From: Dehalococcoidia bacterium
GTDB taxonomy: Bacteria; Chloroflexota; Dehalococcoidia; GIF9; AB-539-J10
Assembly: GCA_034414555.1 (NCBI GenBank)
Contig: DAOUMA010000008.1
Location: forward strand, 78,560-142,559
Direction: 5' to 3'
DNA length: 64,000 nucleotides
Shown here: piece by piece, positions 3,057-46,675 of the stretch
Numbering within the stretch: position 1 is the stretch's first letter
Layout of the letters: each line of letters starts with the position of its first letter
Notes under the pieces: model-generated
Told to the model about the DNA's origin: nothing
Seen by the model: the letters and a program-made list of their open reading frames with translations, nothing else
Databases searched by the model: none
Made by a program: the position numbers and the translations under genes

Positions 3057-3120
3057 AAAAATCCCTCTAAATCCACCTTTAGAAAAGGGGGTTCAACGCC
3101 CCCGTAAGGGGGATTTGACC
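3057..3120. repeat. Palindromic hairpin repeat, copy 2 (aatccctctaaatccaccttt agaaaaggggg ... gggggatttgacc)
   Basis: Shares aatccctctaaatcc and gggggatttgac termini with copy 1. Intergenic position. Confidence 0.6.
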
Positions 3121-6842: not shown

Positions 6843-6950
6843 TGTCGGGGTGGAACTTCCGGTTAATTTCTATTATACCAACGAGGAAGGAGTAAATTTC
6901 AGCAAGCAGCGATAAAATTCCCCAAGCCTGAACAAAATTGACGTTTTGTT
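6843..6950. repeat. Composite scar at the left border of the low-GC operon. It is a remnant of a paralog of the 2034..2780 gene (encodes VELPVNFYYTNEEG...) fused to a copy of the 354-402 repeat
   Basis: 6849-6892 aligns to 2090-2133 with about 6 mismatches. 6901-6950 aligns to 354-402 at about 85%. It reads in frame as a gene fragment ending in a stop. Confidence 0.6.
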
Positions 6951-7039
6951 ACATTACATTCTAGGCTTTTGTAAAATAGGTGGATACATAGAAAGGTTCA
7001 TGACATATTGGAATTGCATTTCATCAGCTAGGACTTTAC

Positions 7040-7702
7040 TCACGCAGGATTCCTAGCAATAAAATCACGCACACCTTGCACCATCAGAGCAACTTGTTCT
7101 TTTGAATATTCATTGTACTTGCCGTGTGCAGCATTGTTACGAAGCCCCAGCCACGCGGTGATACTTTTCTGGTCGAGTTTAGAATAAACGTTAGCGCCAG
7201 CGAGTTCTGCATTCAGACCATCGGCTTTCTTAGGCAGAGACCCCTTAGTCACTGGGATACTATGAGCCTGACATAATTTTCGCAACTGCTCTTCAAGAAC
7301 GCCACCGATTAGAACAGCTGCAGGGTCTTTGTAGCCTTCTGTAAGAAGATAGTCAGCCATCTCCAGAAAATCGCCAAAGATGTCCCCATGGATAATCTCG
7401 TAAACTGATCGTAGGTAACCTGCCTCGTAGTCGGTTCTTAGTGCTTTCAAAATACCGGGAAGGACTATTAAATTGTAAGCCTCATTCTCACCGTATTTCT
7501 TGAGAGCAGCGCGGGCATTCTCTGCATATCGGCTACCACGGGGAGCGAGCCGCTCTATAGCTGCGGCAAGTATCGTAACAAGCTCTGGCACTTCTGTGCC
7601 CAAGTCTGAGCAGTCATCATACTTGGAGCGTGACTTGGCCTTCGCCCATCTCTCAAGTGCTTTGTCGATCTGATTTAGAATAGCCTCTTGATTAATAGAC
7701 AT
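7040..7702 (-). CDS. Hypothetical protein with a C-terminal Rx4H motif (LRNNAAHG), possibly HEPN-like (DUF4145-like)
   Basis: 220 aa. The Rx4H motif lies near the C-terminus. It is the last gene of the nine-gene minus-strand operon, 11 nt after the radical SAM ORF. Confidence 0.45.
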   Translation of the reverse strand: MSINQEAILNQIDKALERWAKAKSRSKYDDCSDLGTEVPELVTILAAAIERLAPRGSRYAENARAALKKYGENEAYNLIVLPGILKALRTDYEAGYLRSVYEIIHGDIFGDFLEMADYLLTEGYKDPAAVLIGGVLEEQLRKLCQAHSIPVTKGSLPKKADGLNAELAGANVYSKLDQKSITAWLGLRNNAAHGKYNEYSKEQVALMVQGVRDFIARNPA

Positions 7703-7713
7703 TGTCTGACCCC

Positions 7714-8481
7714 TTAACGCGGCGCATTATATGAAAAAGCAAGATGATCCTCATACGGCTCCATTGCCTCGCGATGGAAGATAGCTTCCTCCGGCTGTTC
7801 TATTATGTGCTTAAACTCGCCAACATCTTTGCCAAAAGCCTTCTCAAAGAATGGCCTTCTCGGCCCCACCACACCGTGAGTAGCGTGAAGAATGCATTGT
7901 ATACCTCTTAGTTGTCTCTTAGTCCAATTTGGACTGATATATTTCCTATCTTTCGCATCAAGAGGTATGTACCGCATTGGGAAGGAGAAGATACTAAGGC
8001 CTAACTCCTCATTAAGTTCTATATTTATAAGAAGTCTTTTATAAAAGTCTTTCGGGCAATCATCAAAATTGAACAATATGTAATTGGATAGATGCCTGAT
8101 TCCGTACTTATGAGCTAAGCGCACTTTCTCTATATAGAGTTTTTCAAACTTAATGTTGTCAAAAGCTATTCGTAGTGGTTTGAGGGCCAACTGACTGAGA
8201 AGTTCCATCTTACCTTCGTCAAGTAGCCGTGCATCAACACCTTGGTTAAAATCAAGATACCGATAAGCATTCCCAAACCTAGCTCCTTTTTGGAATCCGT
8301 ACTTCTTTATCTCCTCAACTATGCGTGGAAACTCAGCAGAAGCCAAGACATTGTTGTCGAGCAATATGAGGTCTTTCTTGTCAGGATCCAACTGTTGCTC
8401 TAAAGGTATAAAGGGTATAAAGTGCGGCTCTAACCTGTGTACAGCACAGTAAGGGCAGTGGTTTATGCAACCTTTAGTCAT
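7714..8481 (-). CDS. Radical SAM core domain protein; CxxxCxxC (C-INH-C-PY-C) begins at residue 5
   Basis: MTKGCINHCPYCAV. 255 aa. The start ATG overlaps the stop of the upstream B12-binding-domain ORF (ATGA). Confidence 0.75.
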   Translation of the reverse strand: MTKGCINHCPYCAVHRLEPHFIPFIPLEQQLDPDKKDLILLDNNVLASAEFPRIVEEIKKYGFQKGARFGNAYRYLDFNQGVDARLLDEGKMELLSQLALKPLRIAFDNIKFEKLYIEKVRLAHKYGIRHLSNYILFNFDDCPKDFYKRLLINIELNEELGLSIFSFPMRYIPLDAKDRKYISPNWTKRQLRGIQCILHATHGVVGPRRPFFEKAFGKDVGEFKHIIEQPEEAIFHREAMEPYEDHLAFSYNAPR

Positions 8482-8972
8482 ATATCCAATGCTGTGTTGT
8501 TCGTGTAATACTCGTACACATCATTGGTTAGAGCATAGTCAGGTTTCAACCTGTCAACCTCTTCCCAGAGACCAAAGTGTGGAGCTATGCCTGTTTCCCT
8601 TTCAATGTCTGCTTGCAAGAGCGATGCAAGTATGCCTCCAACTTTTATGTTGTCATTCTTAAGCTTGTTACGCTGATAAAATTTAATAGTTTCTATAGTC
8701 CTTTTCCATTGGAAGGTGAACAGAGTGGCTATGTAGATGATGTCCCATCTCTGGTCTCTTATTGCGGCACTGGTTCCTTTGTAGAAAACGACCTCATCAC
8801 CATGCGATTTGTGATAGGTTGAGATTTTCATTAGACCGAGGGGAGGATACTTTACTTTATAGGCTGGCTCTACAAGTAGAACTCTTTTCGGCCTGTTAAT
8901 CAAAATATGTGGGCCTTCTTCAATATTAGGAGCCAGCTTGTACTGCTTAGTTACTGTTATTTCAGTGCTCAC
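8478..8972 (-). CDS. Cobalamin (B12)-binding-like domain, the N-terminal module of a class B radical SAM enzyme encoded as a separate ORF
   Basis: RVLLVEPAYKVKYPPLGLMKISTYHKSHGDEVVFY matches the LLinP..pPLGLlyla..l...Ghev signature of radical-SAM B12-binding domains. 164 aa. ATGA overlaps at both ends. Confidence 0.6.
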   Translation of the reverse strand: MSTEITVTKQYKLAPNIEEGPHILINRPKRVLLVEPAYKVKYPPLGLMKISTYHKSHGDEVVFYKGTSAAIRDQRWDIIYIATLFTFQWKRTIETIKFYQRNKLKNDNIKVGGILASLLQADIERETGIAPHFGLWEEVDRLKPDYALTNDVYEYYTNNTALDI

Positions 8973-10180
8973 GTATTCTCCAAAATCCTCTCCAATTTTA
9001 TTTGATAGTCAGTATTATTCCGGTCAATAGTGTAGTGCAGTGCAGTTGGGTCTGATTGGTAAATATCTTCTAGTAACCCAGCAGCCTTATCATATTCAAG
9101 GAAGAGGCCTTGGCCATCGCGCAAGCTCAGTATATTTGAATAGAGAAGCAATGGCCTTAACAGGCAATAGCCACCGACCCCAGCCAAATGTTTGTAACCT
9201 GGCCAAATAAAGGTCACGAACTTGTCATGCCCAACTTCTTGTGGCAACACCTTTCCATAAGCTTGAGCTACAAATTCAAAGAACCCCGAATCCAAAAGTG
9301 CTTTTATCACGTTTTCTGGGTATTTCTTCTCCATTTCTGCCGCATAGGCTTGTGTTAGCGAGATTAGTTTGAGTCCTACCCTGGTGAACCGCCATGTTCT
9401 AGACCCAGCTGACTCTACAGCCCCCATATCAACCAGCCATTCCAAGCGAGGTATTGTTGTCTGTTCACGTCTAGACCCAGACCCTTGCTCCTCGGCTTTC
9501 TCCTCTATGTTCTTGAGAATCTGTTGCCTGCCCTTTTCAAGAATCTGTAGCTGTTTCTGGTCGGTTAGAGTATACGCGGAGCCAAGGAAGCTATTCCTTA
9601 TATTCTCCATTATGCCAGGAATGAGTGAACCGGCATCAAGGTAATTGAAACTTCCATCTGAAAATCGATTTAGAAGGACATCATAAAAGGGTACTAAGAA
9701 ATCGCCATCCGCAGCTAGCAGGTTGTATAAGAAGAATACTTGCTCTCCACGTTCCAAGACAAGTGGATTTACGGCCGAAGGGTGGTCGAATGCCTCGAGT
9801 TGCTCCTTCGACATCAAACCCTGATATAGAACAAGACCCATGTCGGTTCGTTCATACGAGGCTGTCACCAATCCTAGACCGCGGGGTAAGTATTCCGCAT
9901 ACTCATTGAAGCCAAGTTTAGAGAGCCATCCCGTTTGTGATGGATGACCATAGATATATAGCTTTTGCAGGCTCGTCACATCAGTTCCTTCGCCCAATCC
10001 TTTAAGCCATGTGGCGAGAGCCTCATCCGAAACAGTAAATTTATGCTCTTCAAGCCTTCTGCGCAGTACATCTGACATCTGGTCTGGGGTTCTAGCGAGT
10101 TCGGAAAAAGCCAACACTGCCTTACAAAACCCAAGTCGTTGCATAGAAAGTCTGGAACGACTAATCCATCGAATAGCCAT
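8969..10180 (-). CDS. Hypothetical protein of the operon, 403 aa, no recognisable motif
   Basis: Long ORF packed tightly between the HerA-like gene (2-nt gap) and the B12-domain ORF (4-nt overlap). No motif identifiable by eye. Confidence 0.5.
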   Translation of the reverse strand: MAIRWISRSRLSMQRLGFCKAVLAFSELARTPDQMSDVLRRRLEEHKFTVSDEALATWLKGLGEGTDVTSLQKLYIYGHPSQTGWLSKLGFNEYAEYLPRGLGLVTASYERTDMGLVLYQGLMSKEQLEAFDHPSAVNPLVLERGEQVFFLYNLLAADGDFLVPFYDVLLNRFSDGSFNYLDAGSLIPGIMENIRNSFLGSAYTLTDQKQLQILEKGRQQILKNIEEKAEEQGSGSRREQTTIPRLEWLVDMGAVESAGSRTWRFTRVGLKLISLTQAYAAEMEKKYPENVIKALLDSGFFEFVAQAYGKVLPQEVGHDKFVTFIWPGYKHLAGVGGYCLLRPLLLYSNILSLRDGQGLFLEYDKAAGLLEDIYQSDPTALHYTIDRNNTDYQIKLERILENT

Positions 10181-10182
10181 AT

Positions 10183-11580
10183 CTATGCCTCAAAACCTCC
10201 ATGTGCACTGACTCTTGGGCGGACTTCCATGACAAAACATCTGGGAGTGTTGGTATCAGACACTACAGCTTGACCAACTCCTATGTCTCGTATGAGTTCA
10301 TTTATCGATATATTGACGTTGTTATCCTTGATTTCCGTTGGCAAAGGTGATTTCAAGTTATCTAGAACGTAGTCTATATCAGATTGAGAGACTAATTTGT
10401 GAACGATGAACGTTTCCACTTGAGATAGCACGTTCGGGTCGAGTGCTCTTGGTTGTTGGGTAGTCACTACAAAGGAAAGGCCAAAATTTCTGCCTTCCTT
10501 GACAAACCTTATCAAACTAGCGGTAGCAGAAGTGCGTTTACCGGCCGGGATTACGTTTTGTGCTTCGTCAATAACGACCCAAACCTTGGGTACATAGCGT
10601 TCTACCAGTTCTTTTTTCTCTTTTTTCTGCTGCTCATCTAATTTCGGATTAATAAGAAGATCCTTTGTCATTTCAGAAGCTTCGGCTCTTTCCTGCAATA
10701 GCCTCTTGATAACTACTGAAACAAGTACACCACGCAGATCTTCTGGCAAACCGTTAAGTAGCACTACCGAAGCACGGCCGGCGGTAATCAGGTCACGCAG
10801 TGGCGTTCCGGAACCTGAGAAGATAGGATGCCGGTCATAAGCCCGAAGTTGTTGTAGGACAGCCCTTCTTGTCTCCGCCCGATATACGGATGCCTCATTC
10901 TCCTGGTCCTTCTCTATACATTCAATGAAGTCCCAAATCGTTTGGTCTTTCTTAGCACGATGGTAGTTGCCTTCAGTATCGTACCATCCCAAATCAACCA
11001 CCTTCTGAAATACCTCAGTAAAGTATTGTCCCTTAATATCGCGGACTATATCTAAGTCGAGAAGTGAGCTCCAGTCATCCAATGAGAAGTCTGGTACATT
11101 AAGATACAGGTCCTTGAAAGCTGGCGATGATAGACGATACCGGTAACCGGCAGGAACCCATACGTCAACGTCTAAGGGTACAGCCGGCAATCCCCAAGAA
11201 CGGAGTATATCTGCCTGACTCTTCATTTCCGCGGACTGTTGCTCTGCCGATAGGACTGGAATATTCATCCACTGGAAAATGTTTAGAGTGTCGAATAGAA
11301 GCAAGCCCCTCCGTTTGCTTGTAGCACCAATCGCTGAATTTGACTCAGAGGTACAGAGCGCCTCAATGAGCGAGCCCAAAGTATATGATTTACCCTGTCC
11401 TCGTTTTCCAACAATTGCTATGACCTTCTCTTTCGATACGTCAAATTTGATATTGTAGCGACGTCCATATTCAGCTAGTTTCCCCAAGAAAAGCCATTCT
11501 TTCGGTTCACCGGCCTCTGAGCCTGACGTACACCAATCACCCTGAGCACTCATTTCGGGGTATAGACCATACCTTTTCAT
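10183..11580 (-). CDS. HerA/FtsK-like ATPase (DUF87-type)
   Basis: Walker A IVGKRGQGKSYTL. Walker B VWVVIDEAQNV. C-terminal EGRNFGLSFVVTTQQPRALDPNVLSQVETFIVHKL is typical of HerA/DUF87 ATPases. Confidence 0.8.
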   Translation of the reverse strand: MKRYGLYPEMSAQGDWCTSGSEAGEPKEWLFLGKLAEYGRRYNIKFDVSKEKVIAIVGKRGQGKSYTLGSLIEALCTSESNSAIGATSKRRGLLLFDTLNIFQWMNIPVLSAEQQSAEMKSQADILRSWGLPAVPLDVDVWVPAGYRYRLSSPAFKDLYLNVPDFSLDDWSSLLDLDIVRDIKGQYFTEVFQKVVDLGWYDTEGNYHRAKKDQTIWDFIECIEKDQENEASVYRAETRRAVLQQLRAYDRHPIFSGSGTPLRDLITAGRASVVLLNGLPEDLRGVLVSVVIKRLLQERAEASEMTKDLLINPKLDEQQKKEKKELVERYVPKVWVVIDEAQNVIPAGKRTSATASLIRFVKEGRNFGLSFVVTTQQPRALDPNVLSQVETFIVHKLVSQSDIDYVLDNLKSPLPTEIKDNNVNISINELIRDIGVGQAVVSDTNTPRCFVMEVRPRVSAHGGFEA

Positions 11581-11595
11581 GGATTTAATCTCCTG

Positions 11596-12831
11596 CTAAA
11601 TACGTGGCATAGCTGAATCTAGAAGAGTCTTATCCGCTATCACATATTGATTACTTGCTTTTCCTTGGTGATAAGCAGCAGCCGCAACTTGTGCTAGCGC
11701 ATTTATTATCATGCGGGCATTTCTCGTCTGTTCGTTTTGAAATAGTATTTCCACCGCTCTATCAAGAGCATCTTCCGTGAATGGTAGACTCTGCCAGGTA
11801 ACTTTGCCAGCCAAGCCGACCTCGTTAATAAACTCCTTAGCTCTTTCTTCATCCTTTATATTTTGCATCAAATTGCTCATGAAGGCTCGCATGTCGTTTT
11901 TCGTATTGATAAGCCGAATTAAGTTGATAAACGCTTCGTCCACATTCTGTCGGGTTACGCCTAATCGAGACAGAATGTCATCGGCTGGCTGGATAATGGC
12001 TTTGGGAATAAACTGTTGTCCGGTTCCGAAATAGGCAATTACGAATCCAACATCCTGGTTATAGTCTGAGGCAAGTTGCAGAAAGGCATGATGTATCTCT
12101 ATCAATCTCTTGTCGACATTGTTGAGATCTTGTGCTTCGTCCATGAGAAAGACAATGGCCTTGCCTTGAGTCTTCCGGACCAAGTTACCCAGATTTAATG
12201 TGACATTAACCATATCTTCGGCGTTTTCCAACGCCTTTGTGGCAGCTAGGTCTTGAGCTTGGGCGCCCTTTTCCAGTTTGGAACCCCTAAGCCACTGCCA
12301 GGCTGGTAGAGTCGACCGTGTTTCCCTCAAAAAATACCCGGAAAGAACGTTAGCAAGAGACCTTTTCAGATTTTCATCTCCAAACTTGAATAGCTTTTTC
12401 ATCTCGTTGGATAAATCAGCGGTTTTGTCCTCAGAAGAACGGTTAAATTCTTGAACAATTAGCCTGAGGAAGGCTTCGCCCATCGAATCTAACATCTTGC
12501 CATGAATATACTTCCAGCCGCCAAGATCGGGTATACGCTCATCATATGGCGCAAGCCCGAGGAAGAAACATTTTGCAGGGTAATTCCCTGGCTTTTTGTC
12601 AAACAAATACTTGATATGATACAGCGTGTGAGTCTTTCCATCGCCGAATCTTCCGATAACTCCACATTTTGGGACGCCTCTTATATCGAAGTCACTCCTA
12701 ATCCGAGCCAATAGCTCGTCACTTACCTGCTTGTTGCCAAAGAACCATTCAGCATCTGCCTCTGGGTTTACCCTGAAGCGAGGGCGATTCAGGCAACAGT
12801 AGTCCTTAAGCTCCATATCTTTGATATCCAT
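11596..12831 (-). CDS. P-loop NTPase, paralog C of a tandem trio
   Basis: Walker A GRFGDGKTH at about residue 60. Walker B IVFLMDEAQ at about residue 218. Same architecture as 13383..14573 and 14580..15776. Confidence 0.7.
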   Translation of the reverse strand: MDIKDMELKDYCCLNRPRFRVNPEADAEWFFGNKQVSDELLARIRSDFDIRGVPKCGVIGRFGDGKTHTLYHIKYLFDKKPGNYPAKCFFLGLAPYDERIPDLGGWKYIHGKMLDSMGEAFLRLIVQEFNRSSEDKTADLSNEMKKLFKFGDENLKRSLANVLSGYFLRETRSTLPAWQWLRGSKLEKGAQAQDLAATKALENAEDMVNVTLNLGNLVRKTQGKAIVFLMDEAQDLNNVDKRLIEIHHAFLQLASDYNQDVGFVIAYFGTGQQFIPKAIIQPADDILSRLGVTRQNVDEAFINLIRLINTKNDMRAFMSNLMQNIKDEERAKEFINEVGLAGKVTWQSLPFTEDALDRAVEILFQNEQTRNARMIINALAQVAAAAYHQGKASNQYVIADKTLLDSAMPRI

Positions 12832-12867
12832 TTTCGCCTCCTTTTGCTGAGTTCCAATAAACTAAAG

Positions 12868-13386
12868 CTAGCCAAACAGATTCACTTTAGTGACCTGTTT
12901 GAGTTCTGTTCCCGCTCTATTCGGGATGTCTTCTTTACCTAATACTTCGAGTTCTTCAACTATAGCACAACCTGCTCCCTTCCCCTCCACGAGTAGCCCA
13001 ACCTCAAGAGCTCTAGTCGCTCTCCCCGAGAGGTTGGCAGAGCTTAGTAGTGCAAACCCGAATGGCTCGCAACGACAAACGTATATCTTCGCATGCAAGT
13101 CATTGTTGTAGTATAGCGTCACAAATGGGCTTCCTCTGAAAAGCTTAGCTGCTTCCGTGTTCAGTTGTTCTCTCTCGGGACTGCGCATGATAATTGTCGT
13201 TGGCACCTTTTCCCTTCTTATGACATATAGAATAGCCTCCAATGAGAAGGGCTCTCCGTCAAGACCCAATATCCATGGAGATACTATTACTAGGCTCGTA
13301 ATTCCTGTAGCTTGCATGAATCGCTCAAAGAACAAAGTGTGTCCTCCCTCACGAACAATGGTGACAAATCTCTCTTCCCATCTCAT
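12868..13386 (-). CDS. Phospholipase D-family (single HKD) nuclease-like protein (Nuc/BfiI-like)
   Basis: YNNDLHAKIYVCRCEPFGFALLSSANLS has HxK followed by S-x-N. 172 aa is consistent with a one-HKD dimeric nuclease. Confidence 0.6.
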   Translation of the reverse strand: MRWEERFVTIVREGGHTLFFERFMQATGITSLVIVSPWILGLDGEPFSLEAILYVIRREKVPTTIIMRSPEREQLNTEAAKLFRGSPFVTLYYNNDLHAKIYVCRCEPFGFALLSSANLSGRATRALEVGLLVEGKGAGCAIVEELEVLGKEDIPNRAGTELKQVTKVNLFG

Positions 13387-14573
13387 ATCTCTAGCAGACC
13401 TGCTGCGTGCTCAAGTGTTAGCTCCTTGTTTTCTTGGCAAACGTCTAGGCTAACTACCAAGGCTCTGATAAAATCTCTAGGAGTGCTGGCTGAAGCTGAC
13501 ACGCATCTTCGCACGAATAGCCTTATTGAGGATTTACCAAAATCATTACGCCCCCAACCGTAAGCCTTAAAATGCAAGTCTCGAACCCCTTCAGCAAGCT
13601 CAGTTAATTCCTTGCTTCCTAACTGGTATAGCTCTGTAAAATTTCCCAGGGCTTTATCAAATCCATATGGCATACTCTTAAAGAAAGCTGGGGTAGTCGC
13701 ATATACAAAGTACGAGTATGGTGTACTACGAGCGGCGGTAGCCAGGCTGTATAGATTCTTATATGCCTCTTCTCTCCTTACTGCGCTGGGAAGTGAAGGT
13801 ATAGCGTCTGCCTCATCCAGCAATGTTACAAGCCCTTTTAAACCCATAAACCTGAGCATTTTTGTCAGATTGCCGAGCATTTTGAGTGCGTTCTCTGGGG
13901 AAACATTAGTACTCATACCGATACGCTTGGCATCAGTCATCGTGGTTTCACCTTGGAGCCAGCGAAGAGCTGTGTCTACCTTCCGTGGCCTAGCAAAATG
14001 AACACCTTCAAAGTACTGTGTCAGCGCGTTCTTGACATTTGCATCTAAGTCAGTGAGTATCCAAGGAGCAAGACTATGTCTCGTCACATACTCCTTGACT
14101 TCTAGTGCCCAGTTCTCCAGAACATCTTCCAGAGCCGGCCTATCTGCACAACCGGCCGTCCTGAGGCCCTTGATCACATGGCGATACACGCTCTGAAGAT
14201 TATCCATAGGGCATTCCCTAGAGGAAAGTGTTAGAAAACTGCTTGCAAATTCCTCTATATGTGCATACTCCTGAAGAACCCTTAGCGTAAAGGACTTACC
14301 CATACCAAATATTCCGTCTATGACCCGCAAGCAGGAACTGCCATTAGCTACAAGTGTTAAGTCCTGTTTCATGGAATCAAACAAGTCTTCCCGCCCAACT
14401 GCCAAGACAAGAGCACCCTGGGTAGGCGCTGTTCCTTGGCGACATGATTCCACCAAGGTCAAGGCCATCTCCTTGGATACGTCCCTGACAGATGGTAGCT
14501 TGGGGCGTCTTCGAGCCCTCTGAAGCAGTGCTCTAAGTTTCGGGTCATCTCCAATAGTACCCATTTTCGTCAC
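13383..14573 (-). CDS. P-loop NTPase, paralog B
   Basis: Walker A GIFGMGKSF. Walker B LVTLLDEAD. 396 aa. 4-nt ATGA overlap with the PLD gene. Confidence 0.7.
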   Translation of the reverse strand: MTKMGTIGDDPKLRALLQRARRRPKLPSVRDVSKEMALTLVESCRQGTAPTQGALVLAVGREDLFDSMKQDLTLVANGSSCLRVIDGIFGMGKSFTLRVLQEYAHIEEFASSFLTLSSRECPMDNLQSVYRHVIKGLRTAGCADRPALEDVLENWALEVKEYVTRHSLAPWILTDLDANVKNALTQYFEGVHFARPRKVDTALRWLQGETTMTDAKRIGMSTNVSPENALKMLGNLTKMLRFMGLKGLVTLLDEADAIPSLPSAVRREEAYKNLYSLATAARSTPYSYFVYATTPAFFKSMPYGFDKALGNFTELYQLGSKELTELAEGVRDLHFKAYGWGRNDFGKSSIRLFVRRCVSASASTPRDFIRALVVSLDVCQENKELTLEHAAGLLEI

Positions 14574-14579
14574 GTCTTG

Positions 14580-15776
14580 CTAGTCTTCATGCTCAAATTC
14601 AAGTTTCTCTATTAGATCGTCCAGCATAGCGTTTTCACGCTTCTCTTCTGTAACATCCAGAACGCCTATTAGACCCTTTATGAAAGACCTAATCATGCGC
14701 GGGTCACTAGTTTCAAGAAAGGCAGATACGTACTTGCTAATTGCTCTTGGGTTGAAATAGTCTCCGGCATTCCATTCATATGCCTTGGAGTGTGTGTCAA
14801 CAATGCGAGGTGCTAGCTCCTCCAAAGTGGATTGGTCGAAGGGTGGCAAAGCCATAATTATTGACCTAGCACTTGACTGTTGTAGTCCTCCTCCTATAAC
14901 ATCTTTGATTCTACTCCATAGTGCTGGATATGATCGGGCTCCATTATCAGGGTCTGAGAGGAACTTTGGTGTAGTAGCAAAGAAAACGTAAAAACCTCGA
15001 TGTTCGTCAGGGTTATCCAGCAGTTTACGTATATTCTGGTTTGCTTCTTCACGTTTACGGGATTGAGTCAGTGACGTAATAGCCTCAGCCTCGTCTAAGA
15101 GTACAACAAGGCCAGCATAACCACAAGCCCGCACAAATCGCAAGAAAGAGCCAAGTATCTCACTTACATTCATTATAGTAACGTTAGAGCGTATTCCTTT
15201 TGATTTAAGTTCAGACATTACCTGGTATCCTTGTAGCCAAGCTAATATTCCCTGCATCCGAATTCGATGATCCGGAGAGTCTGTATTAGCGTATTCTAAG
15301 CATGCACGTAAGGCTGCTCTAAAATCCAACGAAGGCGCAATTTGACGTAGATTCGCCTCGACTTCTTGCGAAGAATGGTAAGGAAATCGCCTTGCCCAAT
15401 CCTCAAACATGTGTTCAATACCCTGTCCATCGGGTAAGGTTACGCCACGCATTATCTTCGGGAATATCACTTCAAACCTATCAAACGGAGCTTCTCTTGA
15501 ATTGAGTTCTACATATGACAACAAGAAATTCGCAGACAGGGCTTTTTCCTTGACTTGCATGAAGAAATGTGTCTTACCGCCGCCATAGGGTGCAGACAAG
15601 AAGCGGATTTTGCAGCCACCTTGCCCTATATAAGCTAGATCTCGAGATATAGATGCCAACCATTGCTCACGGCCGACCGAGTACAGCTCCAAGTGTCGTG
15701 CTGGCACAGTCCCTTGCCGAAATGATTCTATAATCGCTTCTGCATCAAACCGACCTAGCTCCCCCGTGCTACTCAT
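14580..15776 (-). CDS. P-loop NTPase, paralog A; first gene of the operon
   Basis: Walker A YGGGKTHF. Walker B LVVLLDEAE. 398 aa. The three paralogs share a long (about 160 aa) Walker A-to-B spacing. Confidence 0.7.
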   Translation of the reverse strand: MSSTGELGRFDAEAIIESFRQGTVPARHLELYSVGREQWLASISRDLAYIGQGGCKIRFLSAPYGGGKTHFFMQVKEKALSANFLLSYVELNSREAPFDRFEVIFPKIMRGVTLPDGQGIEHMFEDWARRFPYHSSQEVEANLRQIAPSLDFRAALRACLEYANTDSPDHRIRMQGILAWLQGYQVMSELKSKGIRSNVTIMNVSEILGSFLRFVRACGYAGLVVLLDEAEAITSLTQSRKREEANQNIRKLLDNPDEHRGFYVFFATTPKFLSDPDNGARSYPALWSRIKDVIGGGLQQSSARSIIMALPPFDQSTLEELAPRIVDTHSKAYEWNAGDYFNPRAISKYVSAFLETSDPRMIRSFIKGLIGVLDVTEEKRENAMLDDLIEKLEFEHED

Positions 15777-15824
15777 TGTGCCGCCCCGTGACCCATAGTA
15801 TATAACCTCGGACTCAGCGACACA

Positions 15825-15947
15825 ACAAAATGGCGTTTTGTGCAGTAGGACGAGTTACCATATTCAGTTTCATAGCCATTCTCGCGGGTGCTATAATCTC
15901 GATGAAAACGGCGGATTGTTCGGCGCTGTGCCAACTTTGCCGGTGTC
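15825..15947. repeat. Composite repeat at the right border of the operon: ggcgttttgtgcag, motif A (cgcgggTGcTATAATctcgatgaaaa), then motif B (gcgctgtgccaactttgccg)
   Basis: Motif A recurs at 23009-23035 and is related to 455-470. Motif B with its ttgtgcag prefix recurs at 17093-17127. Confidence 0.55.
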
Positions 15948-16071
15948 TACATTTTTCCAGAAATTCATCTACGGCTTGTGCTAATCATAATTCCTCCTCC
16001 TCATCATAACTGCTTAGCAACAGCAAACTTGATTGAAAGGCAGATAAGCTGTGTAACATCCGGAGACGGAG

Positions 16072-16977
16072 TCATCTTGAGGCTACAATATATCCAGCGA
16101 TGAGAATTAGAAAACCACCGACAAGCATGAGTGGTGTGGGTTGCTGGGCTAGAAAGAGAAAGCCGAAAACCACAGCGCTTGCGGGCTCCAAATAAGTGAA
16201 AACTACCGCCTTCTGAGCCTTTATCATTCCAAGGCCTTTAAGGTAGAGTGTAACGGCAAATCCCGTGTTGAAGACACCCAAAACCAGCAGAAGTAACCAT
16301 GAAGATAAATCTGGAGAAAAATCAGTGCCTATTACGAAGGGAAGGAGGAAAATTGTAGCTGCAGCGTAAGAATAAAATGCTACGACTTGACTTGAGAAGC
16401 TGGATAAAGCCCTCTTAGACGCGATGACAAATCCGGCATAGGCGAGGCCGGCAAGAAGCCCAAGAATTACTCCCAAAAGATTCAGGTGACTAATCTGAAG
16501 ATTCTGCTGATATGAAATAACTACTATTCCTGCCACGGATATGGCTAATGCAAGCAGGGTAGATTTCTCAAGTTTCTCCTTAAGAAATAGGGGGGCAAGT
16601 AAAGCTACAAAGATGGGTGCCGTGTAATTTAGCAAGACCGCGTTGGCGATTGCAATGAGTTTCATCGAATGGAAAAGCAACGTCCAACCCAGGGCGAGCA
16701 GCAAGCCTAAACTCAGCATAACCCTCCAGGACCTAGCAGCACGCATCGTTTCAGGTTTTCGAGTCAAAAGTACTACAGGCAGGAGGGTGAGGCTGGCAAA
16801 TAAGACCCTGAAGAAAGCGATAACGGACGCGTCGTAAGGGACCCAGTTTACAATTACACCATTAGAGCCCCAGATGATAGCTGCCGCAGCCACGTAGGAG
16901 TATACCAAGAACTTTGAATTGAATTGTCTCAGCACAACTACCCCGGTTTTATGAAGCTGGAAAGAGACATTCTCCAT
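16072..16977 (-). CDS. EamA/DMT-superfamily transporter
   Basis: 301 aa, about 10 TM helices, with the two-repeat architecture typical of EamA. Confidence 0.7.
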   Translation of the reverse strand: MENVSFQLHKTGVVVLRQFNSKFLVYSYVAAAAIIWGSNGVIVNWVPYDASVIAFFRVLFASLTLLPVVLLTRKPETMRAARSWRVMLSLGLLLALGWTLLFHSMKLIAIANAVLLNYTAPIFVALLAPLFLKEKLEKSTLLALAISVAGIVVISYQQNLQISHLNLLGVILGLLAGLAYAGFVIASKRALSSFSSQVVAFYSYAAATIFLLPFVIGTDFSPDLSSWLLLLVLGVFNTGFAVTLYLKGLGMIKAQKAVVFTYLEPASAVVFGFLFLAQQPTPLMLVGGFLILIAGYIVASR

Positions 16978-17092
16978 TATACACTATAAGTTATCGCCGT
17001 CTCTTTTGTGTGCCAGGTTGTAAAGTTGTAGCCTTAGTCAAGGGATTGGGCCCTTCGGCTGTTGGCATCAGCTCACACCCTAATTGCACCTT

Positions 17093-17127
17093 TTAGCGGT
17101 TTGTGCAGCGCTGTGCCAACTTTGCCG
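17093..17127. repeat. Copy of agcggtttgtgcag plus motif B (gcgctgtgccaactttgccg)
   Basis: Aligns to 15831-15844 joined to 15923-15942. The intervening approximately 80 bp that carries motif A at 15.9 kb is absent here. Confidence 0.55.
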
Positions 17128-17174
17128 CCTAATATGCTAGAATAGGCAGGATATTGTAGTAGTGAAGGAGCACT

Positions 17175-17507
17175 ATGGACATCAAAATGCTGCCAGTATA
17201 TTTTGTGATTGGCGGGGTTATAGTCTCCGCCGCAATCTATTTTGGGAGTCAAGCAAAAGGTCTGCTTGCTGCATTTATTGCTTTCTTACCCACTATTAGC
17301 GTGGTAACTCTCTGCGGCATATACTTTGCTACCGGAACACAAGCTGCTGTTTCTTATGCCAAAAGCATGCTGATACTGTTGCCTCCCTGGGTGCTCTATG
17401 TCGTTGCGGTAATCTTTCTTTTGCCGCGTATAGGTCTGGCGGGCTCGCTCATTGTGGGCATCGCAGCCTATCTGGGAATAGCATTTCTAATCATGAGACT
17501 AATATAG
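17175..17507 (+). CDS. Small integral membrane protein (4 predicted TM helices)
   Basis: 110 aa, hydrophobic. SD-like GGAG lies upstream. Confidence 0.5.
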   Translation: MDIKMLPVYFVIGGVIVSAAIYFGSQAKGLLAAFIAFLPTISVVTLCGIYFATGTQAAVSYAKSMLILLPPWVLYVVAVIFLLPRIGLAGSLIVGIAAYLGIAFLIMRLI

Positions 17508-17595
17508 TTATAATGATCAGGAGTAGCTTGCGGTCTATTGAGCAGTAGCGAAGCTGGTGGGAAGGGGCGTACAATATAATTTGGAGGATAAAGAA

Positions 17596-17796
17596 ATGGC
17601 AAAGGCTAAATACCTTGTGGATGAGAAGGGTAGGAAGAGAGCAGTTCTCCTGGATATCAAGGAATATCAGCGATTCATGCGGCGGCTAGAAGAAATGGAA
17701 GATGCCCTCAGTTTAGATGAAGCAGTTCGCACTGCTCAAAGCTTCAGGGACTATCGTGAAGTCAGGGCTGAATTAAAGCGAGAAGGACGTCTGTGA
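17596..17796 (+). CDS. Type II antitoxin (Phd/YefM- or ParD-like)
   Basis: MAKAKYLVDEKGRKRAVLLDIKEYQRFMRRLEEMEDALSLDEAVR. SD GGAGGA 6 nt upstream of the ATG at 17596 (the ORF track started earlier at 17557). The stop overlaps the toxin start. Confidence 0.7.
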   Translation: MAKAKYLVDEKGRKRAVLLDIKEYQRFMRRLEEMEDALSLDEAVRTAQSFRDYREVRAELKREGRL

Positions 17797-18053
17797 GGTA
17801 TGTTGTTCTCCTGGAAAGTCGAGCCGAGAAGGAGCTTAAATCTCTTCCTCAAGGGGTTTTGAAGCGGGTGGATATTAAGTTGCAAGCTTTGTCGCTCAAT
17901 CCTCGCCCAAGAGGTGTAACAAAACTAAAAGGAAAAGAAAGTGAAGGATGGCGACTTAGAATAGGCGATTATCGGCTCCTTTATCAAATCGATGATAAAG
18001 AGAATGTCGTGCGTATCTATAAAATTAAACACAGACGGGAAGTTTATCGCTGA
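17793..18053 (+). CDS. RelE/ParE-family type II toxin
   Basis: 86 aa. ...GDYRLLYQIDDKENVVRIYKIKHRREVY is typical of RelE/ParE. It overlaps the antitoxin by 4 nt. Confidence 0.8.
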   Translation: MRYVVLLESRAEKELKSLPQGVLKRVDIKLQALSLNPRPRGVTKLKGKESEGWRLRIGDYRLLYQIDDKENVVRIYKIKHRREVYR

Positions 18054-18370
18054 TCTTCCTTCTCTATCTGCTGAACATGCCTAGGGCAATTGGTTGTCAC
18101 TACACTTTTCGGCGCTTTGATTAGCGTGACCTGATAATTCCCGGTCGCATGGCACAGAAGCCTGAAATGTGCAATTGATGGTTTTGGAGTTCCTATTCTC
18201 ATTGACTGGTCAGACTCAACATGATAGAGTCCAAACGAAGAGCTCGAGGAAAGGAGAAAAAATATATCGTGGCATACTTTTTTGCCGACATCTTCCTAGC
18301 CAATGGTGTGCCCACTTCGTGCACCGCATATCTGGATTGAGTATAACTGTCAAGTTCAGGGCTTGAGCTA

Positions 18371-18988: not shown

Positions 18989-19347
18989 CCGCGGGACCCG
19001 AACAAGATTACACATATAACCTCATCACACAGGTGAGACCAAATTGATCTCCCTGTTGTTCCAGGCCGATCACCAACGACAAGAGGCTCCTGGTGAGGCA
19101 GATTGCTAGGATTAAGAGTTGCTCAACAACGTTGTCTACACTTTCTGGAGAAGCAGGTGTTCACCATAAAGCCGCTACTTATCTTAGCCCTCGGGAAGAT
19201 AGCCACAGAATCTTGCCCGCAGATCAAAGGTGAGAGGGTACCCTCTAAGTTCAAGCTCAAGGATTCGGTGGCAAGCCAAACAGCGTGGCTTGACTATGGC
19301 CGCTGATGGCAATGACCATAGGGGGTTGGGAACGCCTGGCACTATCA

Positions 19348-19381
19348 GCCTTCAACGTAACCAACGCCGTGGCAGACAGGG
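19348..19381. repeat. 34-bp direct repeat (ccttcaacgtaaccaacgccgtggca..gggc), copy 1
   Basis: Near-identical copy at 24395-24428. Confidence 0.6.
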
Positions 19382-19455
19382 CGATAACACTTTTTCTATT
19401 GCCATCAGAATATGAACTGCATAAAATAGAGCTCTTGCGGAGTGATTAACGAGTT

Positions 19456-22500: not shown

Positions 22501-23082
22501 GCATTTATAGAAAATGAGGTAGGTATAGCAACAGCGATAAAGGACGAGCTCTGTAGCCCGAGGGAGAAAGTTTCTCACTTTGCCCAGCAGAACATTGCTC
22601 ACCGTAGTGACCTTCACACCAGCAATGAGTTTCCTTATGACATCTGGCACAAGATGTCTCAGGAGAAGCTTCTGGGAGTTGGAATTCCACAGGAATATGG
22701 GGGGATGGGAGGCAACTGTCTTTCCATAGCGGTAGCCGGAGAAGCAATGGTACGGCGAGGACACAGCATGGGACTTGCTGTGTCATGGCTAATGCATGAG
22801 CTTATTTCCCGTTTTGTGATACTGAAGTTTGGAGACTCACGGCAGAAAAATAAATATTTACCTGAGTTCGCAAACGGCGAGCTCATAGCTTCTTTTGCCA
22901 TTTCAGAACCGGGTGGAGGAGCTCATCCTAAATATTTGAAAACAGTTGCTCATGAAGAGGGTAATGGTTATGTGTTGAGCGGGGAGAAATACTACCTGAC
23001 AGTCGTTATCGCGGGTGCTATAATCTCAATGAAAATAGCGAGTCAGGCAAAGCCTGAGTTTGTCTATATCGCCCGCTGTTAG
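22501..23082 (+). pseudogene. Truncated acyl-CoA dehydrogenase (N-terminal and middle domains only, no canonical start)
   Basis: The frame is open directly after the gdh stop with no ATG/GTG/TTG until M at 22654. Typical ACAD N-terminus (...FPYDIWHKMSQEKLLGVGIPQEYGG...ISEPGGGAHP...). The ORF ends after about 190 aa against about 380 for the family. Its 3' end runs into repeat motif A (23009-23035). Confidence 0.6.
23009..23035 (+). promoter_or_regulatory. Motif A copy (cgcgggTGcTATAATctcaatgaaaa), an extended -10-like element about 230 nt upstream of the MBL gene
   Basis: 26/27 identity to 15882-15908. Confidence 0.4.
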
Positions 23083-23249
23083 CTGAAATTCGCCCGCCAC
23101 GTATTTTCTGTAAAGGGACGGCAGGAAGGAGGTGATGTCTATGCCAAACCAAAACTGGCCTCTTCACCCGCAGGAAGCGAAGGGGTTGTTTCGTTTTAGT
23201 TAAACAGCCCGATATAGTTAATTGAATTTAATCTATCAGGAGGTGCTAC

Positions 23250-24188: not shown

Positions 24189-24394
24189 CCCTGATAACCT
24201 GTCTAAGTAATTCAAGTGAAATTCAGTTGATAAGGGTGAGGCGATATTCTTGATAAAAATCACGATAGGAGGCGTTGAATATGGCATTTAAATCAGCGTT
24301 TGTTGCCATGCCCCTGATGCAGATTTGGAAAAGCACAGGTGCGTAATTGAAACGTCCAACTACAAGGGATTCAGCAAGATTCCCCACCATCAAC

Positions 24395-24428
24395 CTTCAA
24401 CGTAACCAACGCCGTGGCAAACGGGGCA
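24395..24428. repeat. 34-bp direct repeat, copy 2
   Basis: Matches 19348-19381. Confidence 0.6.
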
Positions 24429-24605
24429 CTCGTCATTCTGGCGAATTCCAATAGCGCCTTTCAGAAACGGCGGTAAGTCTTTTCTGGGCACTTCCCCTTG
24501 GCATTTATAGAGGAGTCCCAGCATTTCGATGGCATAAAGGCTACCTATGATGGGTCAAAATATGCTTTAATGTGGGGAAGTATTAACTTTAAAGGAGCGG
24601 ATTGG

Positions 24606-28991: not shown

Positions 28992-29037
28992 AATTTGGGG
29001 GTTAATAAACAATCTCTGTACAGAGATTGTTTATTAA
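28992..29037. repeat. Perfect 46-bp palindrome (gttaataaacaatctctgta|cagagattgtttattaac)
   Basis: Exact reverse-complement symmetry. It abuts the MITE-like element. Confidence 0.7.
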
Positions 29038-29174
29038 CCTATCCCCCTGACTCCCTTCCCTTAGCAAGGGAAGGGGGAGTGCAGGTAAGAGAGGGGTGAA
29101 ACCCCTCTCTATAAATCTCTTCCCTCTCCTTTGAAGGAGGGGGGATAAAGAGGGTGAGGTTAGTAAACACTCTC
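29027..29174 (+). repeat. Hairpin-rich, approximately 150-bp MITE/REP-like element, copy 1
   Basis: About 90% identical to the reverse complement of 37873-38027. Several internal stem-loops (cccttcccttagcaagggaaggg; gaggggtgaaacccctc; ctctcctttgaaggagag). Confidence 0.7.
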
Positions 29175-37872: not shown

Positions 37873-38027
37873 GAGAGTGTTTACTAACCTCACCCCCTTT
37901 ATCCCCCTCTCCTTCAAAGGAGAGGGGGAAGAGATTTAAAAGAGGGGTGAAACCCCTCTCTTACCTACACTCCCCCTTCCCTTGCTAAGGGAAGGGGGTC
38001 AGGGGGATGGGTTGCTGAACAATCTCC
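37873..38027 (-). repeat. Hairpin-rich, approximately 150-bp MITE/REP-like element, copy 2 (inverted relative to copy 1)
   Basis: The reverse complement aligns end-to-end with 29027-29174. Confidence 0.7.
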
Positions 38028-43061: not shown

Positions 43062-43135
43062 TGGCTGGGGATCCAGGATTCGAACCTGGCCTAACTGATC
43101 CAGAGTCAGTCGTCCTACCGCTAGACTAATCCCCA
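43062..43135 (-). tRNA. tRNA-Gln (anticodon CUG), CCA encoded
   Basis: Manual fold of the reverse complement. 7-bp acceptor stem (U1:A72-type first pair), D stem GUCU/GGAC, anticodon stem ACUGA/UCAGU with loop CU-CUG-GA, T arm CCAGG-UUCGAAU-CCUGG, discriminator G, CCA. Confidence 0.85.
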
Positions 43136-43966: not shown

Positions 43967-44264
43967 GGTTTTGGTGACCCTCTTAGCCCACTCTTTTCAT
44001 AGTATCTGCAAAACTTGATTTATAACCTCCTGGGTTTTCATATCTACGATAGCTATAGATATTTCCCCGTATTCTAAATACAAAAATAATAAGAGTAACA
44101 TCATTGCTAGCTAAGAAAACATGCGATAAAACCGAAATCAGGGTTGCAGTTGTGTGAGCCTACCTACTAATAAACAATGAATTCCGCTCGGGGGGCTTTG
44201 TATCACAAATGCCCTCTGTGTCAAAAGTCAGGTGGTTGTATAAAAAGTGTTATCGAACAGAATC

Positions 44265-44477
44265 CTATGCCTTTGGCTTTCGCATTTCCATAGGGCGCTT
44301 AAAAATCCATAAGTCGTTTAGACTTTTGTTAGGGTCTCCGCTCAAAAACATTACTAATTCCCAATGCTCCTCGCCTTGCTTATTAAGTTGTCTCATTAAC
44401 TCATCTGGTTCTGACTGAGGAGTTCCACCAAAATGGAGAGCGGGAATTGCTTTGTATTCCCATATCGTATTCGCCAT
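44265..44477 (-). CDS. Small hypothetical protein (DUF4177-like)
   Basis: 70 aa, WEYK..P...EELMRQLNKQGEEHWELV pattern. Confidence 0.4.
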   Translation of the reverse strand: MANTIWEYKAIPALHFGGTPQSEPDELMRQLNKQGEEHWELVMFLSGDPNKSLNDLWIFKRPMEMRKPKA

Positions 44478-44540
44478 TTTTCCTCCTATAAATTACTTGA
44501 ATAAGGTAGTGATTTTATATAAGGCAATTATCCATTGACA

Positions 44541-44783
44541 TCAAGTAGATAACCCTAAGATGTCTTTAATTAACTTCTTCCTTTCTTCAAAACTCGGAAG
44601 ACGTCGAGGATTTGTTAATGCTGCTACATCGAAGCTCATTCCATCTATCGCCCCGGCTAAGAAAACTTTCTCTGGGTCTTTAATCTCTTGCACAAATGCC
44701 TTTACATCTTTCTTGTATTCCGCACTATTCCTCATAGAATTTGCCTTTGCTCGTATTATATCCTCAACAATTTTATTAAGCAT
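44541..44783 (-). CDS. Hypothetical protein
   Basis: 80-aa ORF in an AT-rich island. Confidence 0.3.
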   Translation of the reverse strand: MLNKIVEDIIRAKANSMRNSAEYKKDVKAFVQEIKDPEKVFLAGAIDGMSFDVAALTNPRRLPSFEERKKLIKDILGLST

Positions 44784-45122
44784 CGCTTACCCCCTTTAAC
44801 ATTTAATGGCTTTGCTTCTAAAGTACCTTCTGCTCCAAAAGTCGTTATCAGACTTCAACTGAAACGTCATTCAATTCTTTCAAGTACTGGATTAGAGTAT
44901 CTCTCATTGCATAAGCTTGGTGATATTTATTCGCCAATTCTTTTTGTTTATCCACATCTGGGAGAACATTAACTCCATTCCCCTTACTTGTCAACTCAAT
45001 ATCAATATCTTTGGGTTTTCTTTTCTGGCAACTAGGATATAGACCGATGCTTTCAAAAATCCTACAAGTCTTCTATTTGAGCCTGGGCGGGAGTATAATT
45101 GACTTAACAGCGGGGTGAAGTT

Positions 45123-45713
45123 ATGCCATTTTGTTCTAATTGTGGAAACGAAATACAAGAAAGCATGAAGTTTTGTCCAGAATGCGGTCATAGGCGTGCC
45201 GCTGAGGGAAAGGAGCCAGAAGAGATATTGGGGCTGGATGAAGTAAAGAGGATAGCGAAGGAATACGTTCGGTGTGAAGAGAATATAGGAGATGTGGAGG
45301 TCGAAGGTGCTGTGCCTTGCTCCCGAGAAGGGCAGCTTGTGTGGGTGGTGCAGGGAAAAGTAAGGAAACACACTGTTGACCCGAAACCCTGGCAGGCCTG
45401 GCCGGTTGGTGTAGTGGAAGAGCGCCCTTTCACCGTCCAGGTCTCTGATAAAGATGGGAAGATAACTGATTATAAGCCAGGTGATTGGATAAGGAAGAAT
45501 GCAGAGCAAGCTCCATCGGAGAGTTCTTCCTGTGATACGATACTGGTTGACCCTGAACCATATCCATTTAGCGAGCCCGAGACAATTAGTGATATACGAC
45601 TGAAAGATGCCAAGAGGAGGAACGAAGAAGCTGATGCTGAACTCAAAAGAGAAATCGCAAAGGACATCAGGGATAAGAGAGGAATGAGAGGGGGCTGGGG
45701 ACTGCCTTTCTAA
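45123..45713 (+). CDS. Zinc-ribbon domain protein
   Basis: N-terminal CSNCGNEI...CPECGHR double CxxC. 196 aa. Preferred over the low-complexity 323-aa antisense ORF. Confidence 0.55.
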   Translation: MPFCSNCGNEIQESMKFCPECGHRRAAEGKEPEEILGLDEVKRIAKEYVRCEENIGDVEVEGAVPCSREGQLVWVVQGKVRKHTVDPKPWQAWPVGVVEERPFTVQVSDKDGKITDYKPGDWIRKNAEQAPSESSSCDTILVDPEPYPFSEPETISDIRLKDAKRRNEEADAELKREIAKDIRDKRGMRGGWGLPF

Positions 45714-45821
45714 GTTTTCTAGTCTCTGGGATTGCGAGAATTGCCTCTTAATAAAGCAACTTGAGAAGGGTAAATAACCAACAGATATACCAATAGCCCA
45801 GTGGTGTGGAGAAGAAAGACA

Positions 45822-46642: not shown

Positions 46643-46675
46643 TTAGCTGTTAGATACGATTTAGCCCACACTAAG

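Follow-up and report, generated by a model that had tools for sequence, protein, structure and literature searches.

Why should one transporter gene in a sediment bacterium lie between two closely similar noncoding sequences, only one of which holds an additional segment with a promoter-like box? The question is raised by a 64,000-nt stretch of DNA, here called the window, from a Dehalococcoidia bacterium (GenBank assembly GCA_034414555.1, contig DAOUMA010000008.1, positions 78,560 to 142,559). A gene for an EamA-type transporter is flanked there on both sides by a short motif B, and on one side also by a motif A with a TGnTATAAT box. A first-pass annotation of the sequence had proposed a nested insertion, an orphan promoter, or a small mobile element, and had suggested that related loci be compared. 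The answer that we favor, with a probability of about 60%, is that both motifs belong to a single intergenic repeat, dispersed and mosaic, that carries a candidate promoter and is found in a sediment lineage of Dehalococcoidia. We call this repeat M3.

The motifs do lie where they had first been placed, with coordinates that were 1-3 nt off. The 12-mer GGTGCTATAATC of motif A, at 15887-15898, is one of three occurrences in the window (457, 15887, and 23014) where 0.33 are expected. The 20-mer GCGCTGTGCCAACTTTGCCG of motif B is exact at 15923-15942 and 17108-17127, against a shuffle expectation of 0.00 (100 shuffles). Similarity extends beyond the motif at two of the three motif A sites, with 28/30 nt identical between 15878-15907 and 23005-23034; the copy at 457 has the 12-mer only in common with them. 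The 13-mer GCGTTTTGTGCAG at 15833-15845 corresponds to GCGGTTTGTGCAG at 17096-17108, and the two agree at 12/13 positions. The best ungapped alignment of the sequences flanking the EamA gene is nevertheless contiguous (15911-15942 against 17096-17127, 29/32), because the left site has two occurrences of the 13-mer, at 15833-45 and again at 15911-23. These two occurrences are 78 nt apart, and the supposed insert therefore equals exactly one repeat period. It was thus rightly observed that the flanks recur near 17.1 kb without the insert: this site has both flanks of the 15.9-kb site, minus 78 nt. An nhmmer search with the profile of the family located three M3 copies in the window, named L, R, and M, each of them on the minus strand. 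They and their parts are as follows.

16072..16977, minus strand: gene for an EamA/DMT transporter (PF00892, E = 7.5e-43), between copies L and R
15814..15954, minus strand: L, an intact M3 copy with a class III arm (nhmmer E = 3.5e-38)
15821..15845, plus strand: outer box and imperfect palindrome CACAACAAAATGGCGTTTTGTGCAG, at which the repeat, read in its own orientation, has its right end
15869..15897, plus strand: candidate sigma-70 promoter in L (-35 TTCATA at 15869-15874, 17-nt spacer, TG at 15889-15890, -10 TATAAT at 15892-15897)
15911..15923, plus strand: inner 13-nt box (minus strand CCGAACAATCCGC), repeated directly by the one at 15833-15845
15923..15942, plus strand: motif B, the class III arm (minus strand CGGCAAAGTTGGCACAGCGC), an exact 20-mer with two window copies
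17069..17127, minus strand: R, a core-less copy (nhmmer match 17108-17069, E = 0.003)
23000..23100, minus strand: M, a third copy with a class II arm (nhmmer match 23080-23000, E = 6.9e-15)

The evidence for a family comes from related Dehalococcoidia. With the reverse complement of motif A, 68 metagenome loci were retrieved, and profile searches of 566 kb of related Dehalococcoidia metagenome contigs (loci numbered with the prefix L) returned 100 matches to M3, 75 to a 64-nt hairpin module called M1, and 50 to a third module, M2. The ends of pairwise homology cluster at -10 to -7 (AATCCGC) and inside a palindrome at +68 to +91. These clustered ends delimit a core of about 98 nt that is at least 90% conserved, with flanks that fall to about 30%, or random level. 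In its own orientation, which is that of the window minus strand, the core runs from AATCCGC to GTGCAAT, and the palindrome at the right end of M3 takes the form GAACAAAA-N5-7-TTTTGTKC (also written GAACAAAA-N5-7-TTGTKC). Two direct 13-nt boxes with the pattern CYGAACAAWMCGC are points at which homology between copies ends; their family consensus sequences, CCGAACAATCCGC and CTGAACAAAACGC, are 78 nt apart. On its left the core is joined to one of at least four alternative arms. The class III arm is motif B, which adjoins the core in L037, L059, L061, and L075 as well. The resulting units are 100-160 nt long, noncoding, and multicopy. M3 is enriched at the ends of loci, as assembly-breaking repeats typically are: 38/98 matches lie within 350 nt of an end as against 10% expected.

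The EamA gene does sit between two direct repeats, as first claimed, but they are not a bracket that was made around it; they belong to a dispersed family that accompanies many unrelated genes. In L011, whose EamA protein is 96% identical, composite repeats of ~250 nt lie on both sides of EamA plus a PemK/MazE pair, and each includes a motif A unit. EamA relatives with other neighbors (L012 and L013) gave no M3 match in the flanks compared, and no orthologous site without EamA turned up. The notion that insertion of EamA created the direct repeats was rejected, since the repeats occur at many loci and are not specific to EamA borders. A search of a viral contig collection gave no match to M3, and a literature search for a described repeat or integron of Dehalococcoidia found nothing. 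The family appears to be undescribed.

If M3 is a family with a conserved core, the 78-nt difference between the two EamA-flanking copies should be read from its relatives. The left copy gives a consensus BLAST match at 15926-15825 (89%) and was aligned with L037, L059, and L075 (alignment A1). In the same alignment, R shows a clean 78-nt gap relative to the orthologous site in L075, which has the same flanks on both sides together with a full core. The other loci listed with the EamA-upstream right flank (L011, L025, L036, L040, L041, L054, and L056) all have a full core too. R consists of motif B (17108-17127), a hybrid 13-nt box (17096-17108), and the repeat tail that is conserved in the family (17069-17095), and is missing the 78-nt core. 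Because L075 and the other loci with this flank are filled, and because R keeps the tail, R is most likely an internal deletion of 78 nt between 13-nt direct repeats, a polarity that we infer from this comparison and that is probably the reverse of the nested insertion first proposed. Slippage or recombination between the internal 13-nt boxes would have removed exactly the 78-bp core. Deletions of 62-78 nt between direct repeats of 11-13 nt are ordinary products of replication slippage. A 62-nt segment with motif B, lying between two CSAACAAGCCG boxes, is present in L059 and absent from L052.

The main recognizable feature of the core is its candidate promoter. In L, a promoter scan scored TTCATA-17-TGcTATAAT at 10/12 with the TG, and the box does point, as had been noticed early, toward the 3' end of the convergent, minus-strand EamA gene. 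Both promoter activity of the core and the mechanism by which M3 spread are what we infer from sequence comparison. The -10 box is kept across the family, though it was part of the search pattern. Among class II copies, 18/25 have an open reading frame (ORF) of at least 60 aa, preceded by a Shine-Dalgarno sequence, that starts 75-150 nt downstream; on the antisense side the count is 7/20. The proteins encoded downstream from class II copies are mutually unrelated and mostly of defense or DNA-related types (HSDR_N nuclease-like, NOV_C/sacsin ATPase, UDG-superfamily, type III methylase, and GmrSD), and the gene content of M3 loci is mostly of restriction-modification and defense families. In L011, all that a partial copy has retained is the segment from -60 to -7, adjacent to the start of a gene. 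M3 would serve as a portable promoter plus leader in front of accessory, mostly defense, genes, and its copies would pile up in one orientation at the junctions of variable segments.

Copy L occupies the interval that separates the 3' end of EamA from the beginning of a defense-like operon. It has no downstream gene in the promoter direction, and no terminator-like site was found between 15900 and 16072. L is an intact copy and an apparently orphan putative promoter: directed at the 3' end of EamA, it has no ORF to transcribe and, if active, would lead to antisense transcription of EamA. The initial idea of an orphan promoter or of part of a small element came near to the family data; a mobile insertion with target duplication is improbable, the 13-mers being conserved parts of the element. 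Copy M, which has only 40 nt in common with L (at 85%), breaks off within its core, where it is joined to the ORF of a truncated acyl-CoA dehydrogenase (22654-23082, plus strand). The ACAD Pfam matches of this ORF end at residue 118, and the protein is full-length, at 391 aa, in L011. The pseudogene is cut at both ends, with its N-domain matching from profile position 41 and its middle domain to 40 of 97, and its 3' break coincides with the break in M. M keeps its -10 and leader, and the fusion, by adding a CTGACA -35, creates CTGACA-17-TGcTATAAT (22996-23024; 11/12 with the TG), 225 nt upstream of a 312-aa gene at 23250. A single deletion would have cut M in its core and truncated the dehydrogenase, leaving a putative promoter upstream of the next gene. 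The class II leader of M also contains a hairpin, TCAGGCAAAGCCTGA followed by GTTTGTCTAT at 23043-23067 (plus strand), with a terminator-like score; in other class II copies the tail of this hairpin is not T-rich.

Copies and fragments of the family also coincide with changes in gene content. Four breaks in synteny between the window and L011, at 15.9, 17.1, 19.3, and 23.0 kb, fall on them. Four further features are relevant here.

6890..6955, strand not assigned: D6 element with palindrome GAACAAAATTGACGTTTTGTTA (6930-6951), similar to that at 15821-15845, at the left operon border
19299..19382, minus strand: M2 fragment (class I arm) without a core, at the break in synteny with L011 upstream of DegV
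24385..24492, minus strand: second M2 fragment, just upstream of the L25 gene
374..468, plus strand: possible diverged relative of the promoter module (tentative; weak colinear nhmmer matches, E = 0.46 and 3.3)

Homology to relatives with other cargo stops at 15821-15845. The window, L037, and L059/61 have the same EamA-side flank and motif B, yet their cargo differs past GAACAAAA, where the flanks of the window, L037, and L059 diverge. Between M3 and D6, with both borders shared, lie 8.9 kb of cargo in the window, 4.7 kb in L030, and 1.2 kb in L059/61; D6 bounds this different cargo in L030, L059, and L061 (alignment A2). In all 49/49 loci with several hits, the M1 and M3 modules are on one strand, where 17 such loci are expected. 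Homologous recombination or slippage between dispersed repeats explains this junction pattern.

As for the last feature listed, a palindrome (383-403) and GGTGCTATAATC (457-468) are spaced much as in the family and precede an HpaB-family gene at 557. A promoter scan found no -35 element for the copy at 457. This copy is at best a very distant relative of M3 and may be an independent extended -10 box. The left operon border is itself a patchwork, in which 6843-6935 resembles 2084-2132 and 347-388. It begins with an 86% copy of the 5' part of a DUF169 gene, onto which the sequence upstream of the HpaB-family gene is immediately joined as an 88% copy, an order that a tandem-duplication junction would give.

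Several observations weigh against a portable promoter that has occasionally lost its core. Conservation of the -10 box is partly forced, the box being in the retrieval pattern. About 75 nt upstream of the -10 are conserved as well as the promoter itself and are therefore not explained by a bare promoter. For 16/27 class I copies, the first 500 nt in the direction of the promoter contain no ORF. In 22/57 copies the adjacent gene is on the other side, in the repeat's own orientation. L, which precedes the operon start (15776) by 45 nt, and R, which precedes EamA, are both among these, and M3 may also, or instead, act in its own orientation. Finally, core-less sites recur (5/42 for class I, 1/6 for class III, and 7/10 for class IV arms), which fits repeated deletion and equally fits insertion of cores into a pre-existing palindromic site.

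This last point is the natural starting place for two rival explanations in which the 78-nt segment moves. By one of them, a small insertion similar to the miniature inverted-repeat transposable elements (MITEs) entered the left site and duplicated a 13-nt target, with the right site remaining as the uninterrupted target. The exact size difference, the flanking 13-nt direct repeats, and the existence of core-less sites with other arms would suit this account, as would the 8-nt sequences AATTTCAC...GTGCAATT that terminate class II units and form a weak inverted repeat (7/8 by eye). We judge it improbable, because the direct repeats are not site-specific duplications but the same conserved part of the element in nearly all copies, and they are absent from class II, whose copies have no left box. 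No flank duplication specific to an insertion was seen. No inverted repeats were found at the ends of the 65-78-nt core, the 65-nt insert included, and neither the most frequent Pfam families of the loci proteins nor a phmmer scan of the loci revealed a transposase nearby. The filled site in L075, the core in every other listed locus with the EamA-upstream flank, and the conserved tail retained by R speak against it as well. The other proposal makes the boxes and the palindromes (GAACAAAA-N5-7-TTTTGTKC) core sites of a trans-acting site-specific recombinase, integron- or pdif-like, through which arms, promoter core, and gene cassettes would be exchanged; R would then reflect excision of the 78-bp core, and the 8.9-kb operon would be an integrated cassette. 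Homology between copies does switch abruptly at the boxes, and the shared flanks with differing cargo, the common borders of the M3-to-D6 segments, the strict co-orientation, and the motif B segment that distinguishes L059 from L052 all accord with it. In addition, core-less sites can be parsed as a left half-site, a spacer, and a right half-site, and by eye the two palindromes at the operon borders, with the central sequence ACAAAACG(C/T)CA(A)TTTTGTT, differ by one mismatch and a 1-nt indel. Yet the border spacers match only in the window and not in L059 or L030, the deletions of 62-78 nt are what slippage ordinarily produces, and the boxes could be conserved operator half-sites. A phmmer search with Escherichia coli XerD and the gamma-delta resolvase, which is of limited sensitivity, gave no match at E<=1 among stop-to-stop ORFs of at least 80 aa across the 566 kb of loci. 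When the Pfam families of 112 representative loci proteins are ranked by frequency, the first 25 include no recombinase family, and no recombinase was seen among the 39 window ORFs scanned. Recombinase sites are a possible but doubtful explanation. Much the same doubt attaches, perhaps a shade more strongly, to the wider claim that the junctions form a trans-acting recombination platform that shuffles defense and toxin-antitoxin cassettes, alternative leaders, and a 78-bp promoter mini-cassette with no linked integrase. We know of no integron- or pdif-like cassette platform without a linked integrase that has been described in this phylum.

Two further explanations give the core another function altogether. 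It might be a regulatory platform rather than a mobile promoter, in which the two boxes (near -72 and +9) and an internal cGATAATgAcTATgA are operators for one factor and the copies constitute its regulon. The conservation upstream of the -10 is what such an arrangement would predict, and a palindrome stands at a similar spacing to the TGnTATAAT box at 383-468, upstream of an unrelated metabolic gene. By eye, the internal sequence matches at 11/14 positions the 7-1-7 box of the Fur family (TGATAATNATTATCA). Identity of at least 90% over ~98 nt in roughly 100 copies far exceeds what operators need, no regulator is linked to the copies, and L has a degraded version of the box, GCGAGAATGGCTATGA, all of which leaves a regulon decidedly improbable. 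Less credible still, to the point of being very hard to sustain, is the view that M3 encodes a structured small RNA or a small protein, or that promoter boxes have merely recurred by chance. For an RNA, Rfam returned nothing at the gathering threshold and nothing credible in a relaxed scan, RNAalifold found no consensus fold in 56 core copies (-4.9 and -3.4 kcal) or in the class I and II arms (-3.3/-0.5 kcal), and folding of the core as single-strand DNA gave z-scores of 0.07 and 0.73, with no excess stability. For a protein, short ORFs can be read on both strands, such as MKIADCSARRNQEPQF..., which starts 4 nt after the -10, but the M3 copies differ by frameshifting indels of 1-2 nt in the core, and the readable ORFs range from 26 to 81 aa with different C-termini. 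As for chance, a scan of genome contigs with the 18-mer CGCGGGTGCTATAATCTC around the -10 gave only 7 promoter-like chance matches, in unrelated metagenome-assembled genomes (MAGs); the 20-mer and 30-mer matches in the window and the 100-copy family exclude it. A dispersed repeat with a candidate promoter remains our preferred explanation for motifs A and B.

Other observations on the modules stand apart from this choice. The Fur-like sequence in the core (consensus CGATAATGACTATGA; degraded in the window at 15860-15875) overlaps the -35 and spacer of the candidate promoter. Small-protein readings (MKGAMGIRQNDECPVCHGVGYVEGS in M2, RRTIRYFHRDYSTHDNDYETGYGNSPY, and MKIADCS...) were rejected by conserved stops, indels, and varying lengths. 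Inspection by eye spoke against taking TTGGCACAGCGCTGCA in motif B for a sigma-54 element, its spacing being one base short and its left copy having no -12. A LexA box was rejected for its wrong spacing, and a dif-like site was rejected, its arms being unlike dif. A short ORF in M2, MKGAMGIRQNDECPVCHG(I/V)GYVEGS, has a CxxCxGxG-like motif (L011:9601-9678 and 11964-12041; window 24385-24463, minus strand); its stop codon is kept in both L011 copies, and the window copy has no ATG. M1 is an imperfect hairpin repeat of 64 nt (GGTATTCTGGGGACATAATACC...GGTATGGTGTCCCTGGAATTC) with a single-strand DNA folding z of -3.67 and, by alifold, no consensus fold. There are 15 copies in L013:3789-20396 and four in L011:8780-11870, and the nhmmer profile found none in the window. 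M1 copies directly follow stop codons, all in one orientation, between small genes of toxin-antitoxin type. This arrangement resembles a cassette array, in which no GTT/AAC attC boxes were seen by eye.

The setting of these copies in the window is chromosomal, since UvrA, an H+-pyrophosphatase, a ribonucleotide reductase, and L25 are encoded there. Homologs of the EamA protein at 80-96% identity occur in many metagenome contigs, and one NCBI entry names a Dehalococcoidia MAG. Left of copy L is a nine-gene operon on the minus strand (7040-15776). Its products are four ATPases (two BrxD/SngB-like with DUF2791 and two mad8/HerA-like), a small protein resembling DrmC/PLD, one with a weak B12-binding-like match, and three with no match. 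A comparison with PADLOC matched no complete known defense system, and in relatives the operon is swapped for other cargo. Apart from short fragments, searches for exact protein matches yielded just one metagenome contig, L002, which is 100% identical. Copy R sits between the start of EamA and a 110-aa gene at 17175, and a RelB-like/ParE toxin-antitoxin pair at 17557-18053 (plus strand) is in a segment missing from L011. The region 15.8-24.5 kb is suggestive of a variable island, of which this pair is another sign. Two contigs from Logan SRR14784668, L001 and L003, correspond to window positions 16053-17137 and 17162-18266. This assembly breaks ~10 nt past motif B of R and again near the 3' end of EamA, breaks that could be induced by the repeat or reflect population polymorphism at these sites.

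Elsewhere in the window, inverted repeats of ~150 nt at 29023-29174 and 37873-38026 (86 nt at 90% and 35 nt at 97%), rich in GGGG/CCCC hairpins, enclose 8.7 kb with the H+-pyrophosphatase and UvrA genes. Short motifs similar to them also lie at 2863-2896 and 3058-3091, and the pair is possibly another repeat family or the boundary of an invertible segment. The only tRNA or tmRNA that could serve as an integration target is tRNA-Gln at 43062-43135 (minus strand), which is unrelated to M3. After it, the stretch 44000-49000 has a low GC content (0.38-0.42), proteins with no Pfam match, and a 44-nt repeat (93% identity) at 46673 and 49074. This stretch may be an integrated element, again unrelated to M3.

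M3 is of a known kind, that of promoter-carrying mosaic intergenic repeats, and each familiar relative shares only some of its traits. Putative mobile promoters are stretches of at least 50 nt, highly similar to one another (identity of at least 80%), that lie upstream of nonhomologous genes in one genome, and their spread was attributed to mobile elements, MITE-like repeats, recombination, or horizontal gene transfer (Matus-Garcia, Nijveen & van Passel 2012, PMC3488235). That survey cites the Correia repeat-enclosed and enterobacterial repetitive intergenic consensus (ERIC) elements and makes no mention of Dehalococcoidia or Chloroflexi (PMC3488235). By the same measure, related contigs bear three M3 copies in L056 and two each in L011, L042, and L075, and the two or three copies in L011 and L056 are at least 90% identical beside different genes. 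In contrast to putative mobile promoters, M3 is larger (~100 matches), mosaic with alternative arms, strictly co-oriented, and concentrated in defense islands, and a clear downstream gene accompanies only about half of its copies.

Correia elements of Neisseria and ERIC elements are MITEs with promoters, the former having terminal inverted repeats of 26 bp and a TA duplication. Like them, M3 is short (100-160 bp), noncoding, multicopy, and intergenic, exists in full and internally deleted forms, and would bring candidate promoters. Unlike Correia elements, it has only a doubtful 8-nt inverted repeat and no target duplication, and its promoter is central and complete rather than terminal and partial. 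The bacterial interspersed mosaic elements (BIMEs) and repetitive extragenic palindromic (REP) sequences of enterobacteria are intergenic mosaics of conserved motifs in varying order, to which the noncoding mosaic of M1, M2, M3, arm classes, and D6 is comparable. The M3 core differs in being nonpalindromic, in forming no hairpin (z about 0), and in carrying a candidate promoter. M3-type mosaic elements probably act at the level of DNA and protein binding.

Integron attC sites have inverted R''(RYYYAAC) and R'(GTTRRRY) boxes and a folded single strand, and pdif modules encode no recombinase. M3 resembles integrons and the pdif modules of Acinetobacter in its co-oriented sites that border exchangeable modules (toxin-antitoxin and defense) and in the small palindromes at its junctions. 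Its boxes, however, are direct, and GCCGAAC and ACTGAAC miss RYYYAAC at position 4; there is no single-strand hairpin, the scans made revealed no intI-like or other recombinase, and genes at M3 loci lie in both orientations. Nor does the M3 palindrome have the ATAA...TTAT dif-like arms of pdif. Insertion sequences, lastly, have outward promoters that supply a promoter or a -35 element to neighboring sequence. A repeated M3 element would likewise offer its neighbor a candidate promoter or -35, but M3 is only ~100-160 bp and has no transposase or insertion sequence ends.

As it stands, M3 is an example of promoter-carrying mosaic repeats and not a new principle; if its boxes are recombinase sites, it would represent a new cassette-exchange platform. 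The family would account for assembly breaks in these genomes of Dehalococcoidia and offers a sequence tag for variable islands and candidate promoters in MAGs of this group. It marks the heads and junctions of accessory and defense segments in an uncultured, abundant sediment lineage, and it is a candidate route by which horizontally acquired defense genes may come to be expressed.

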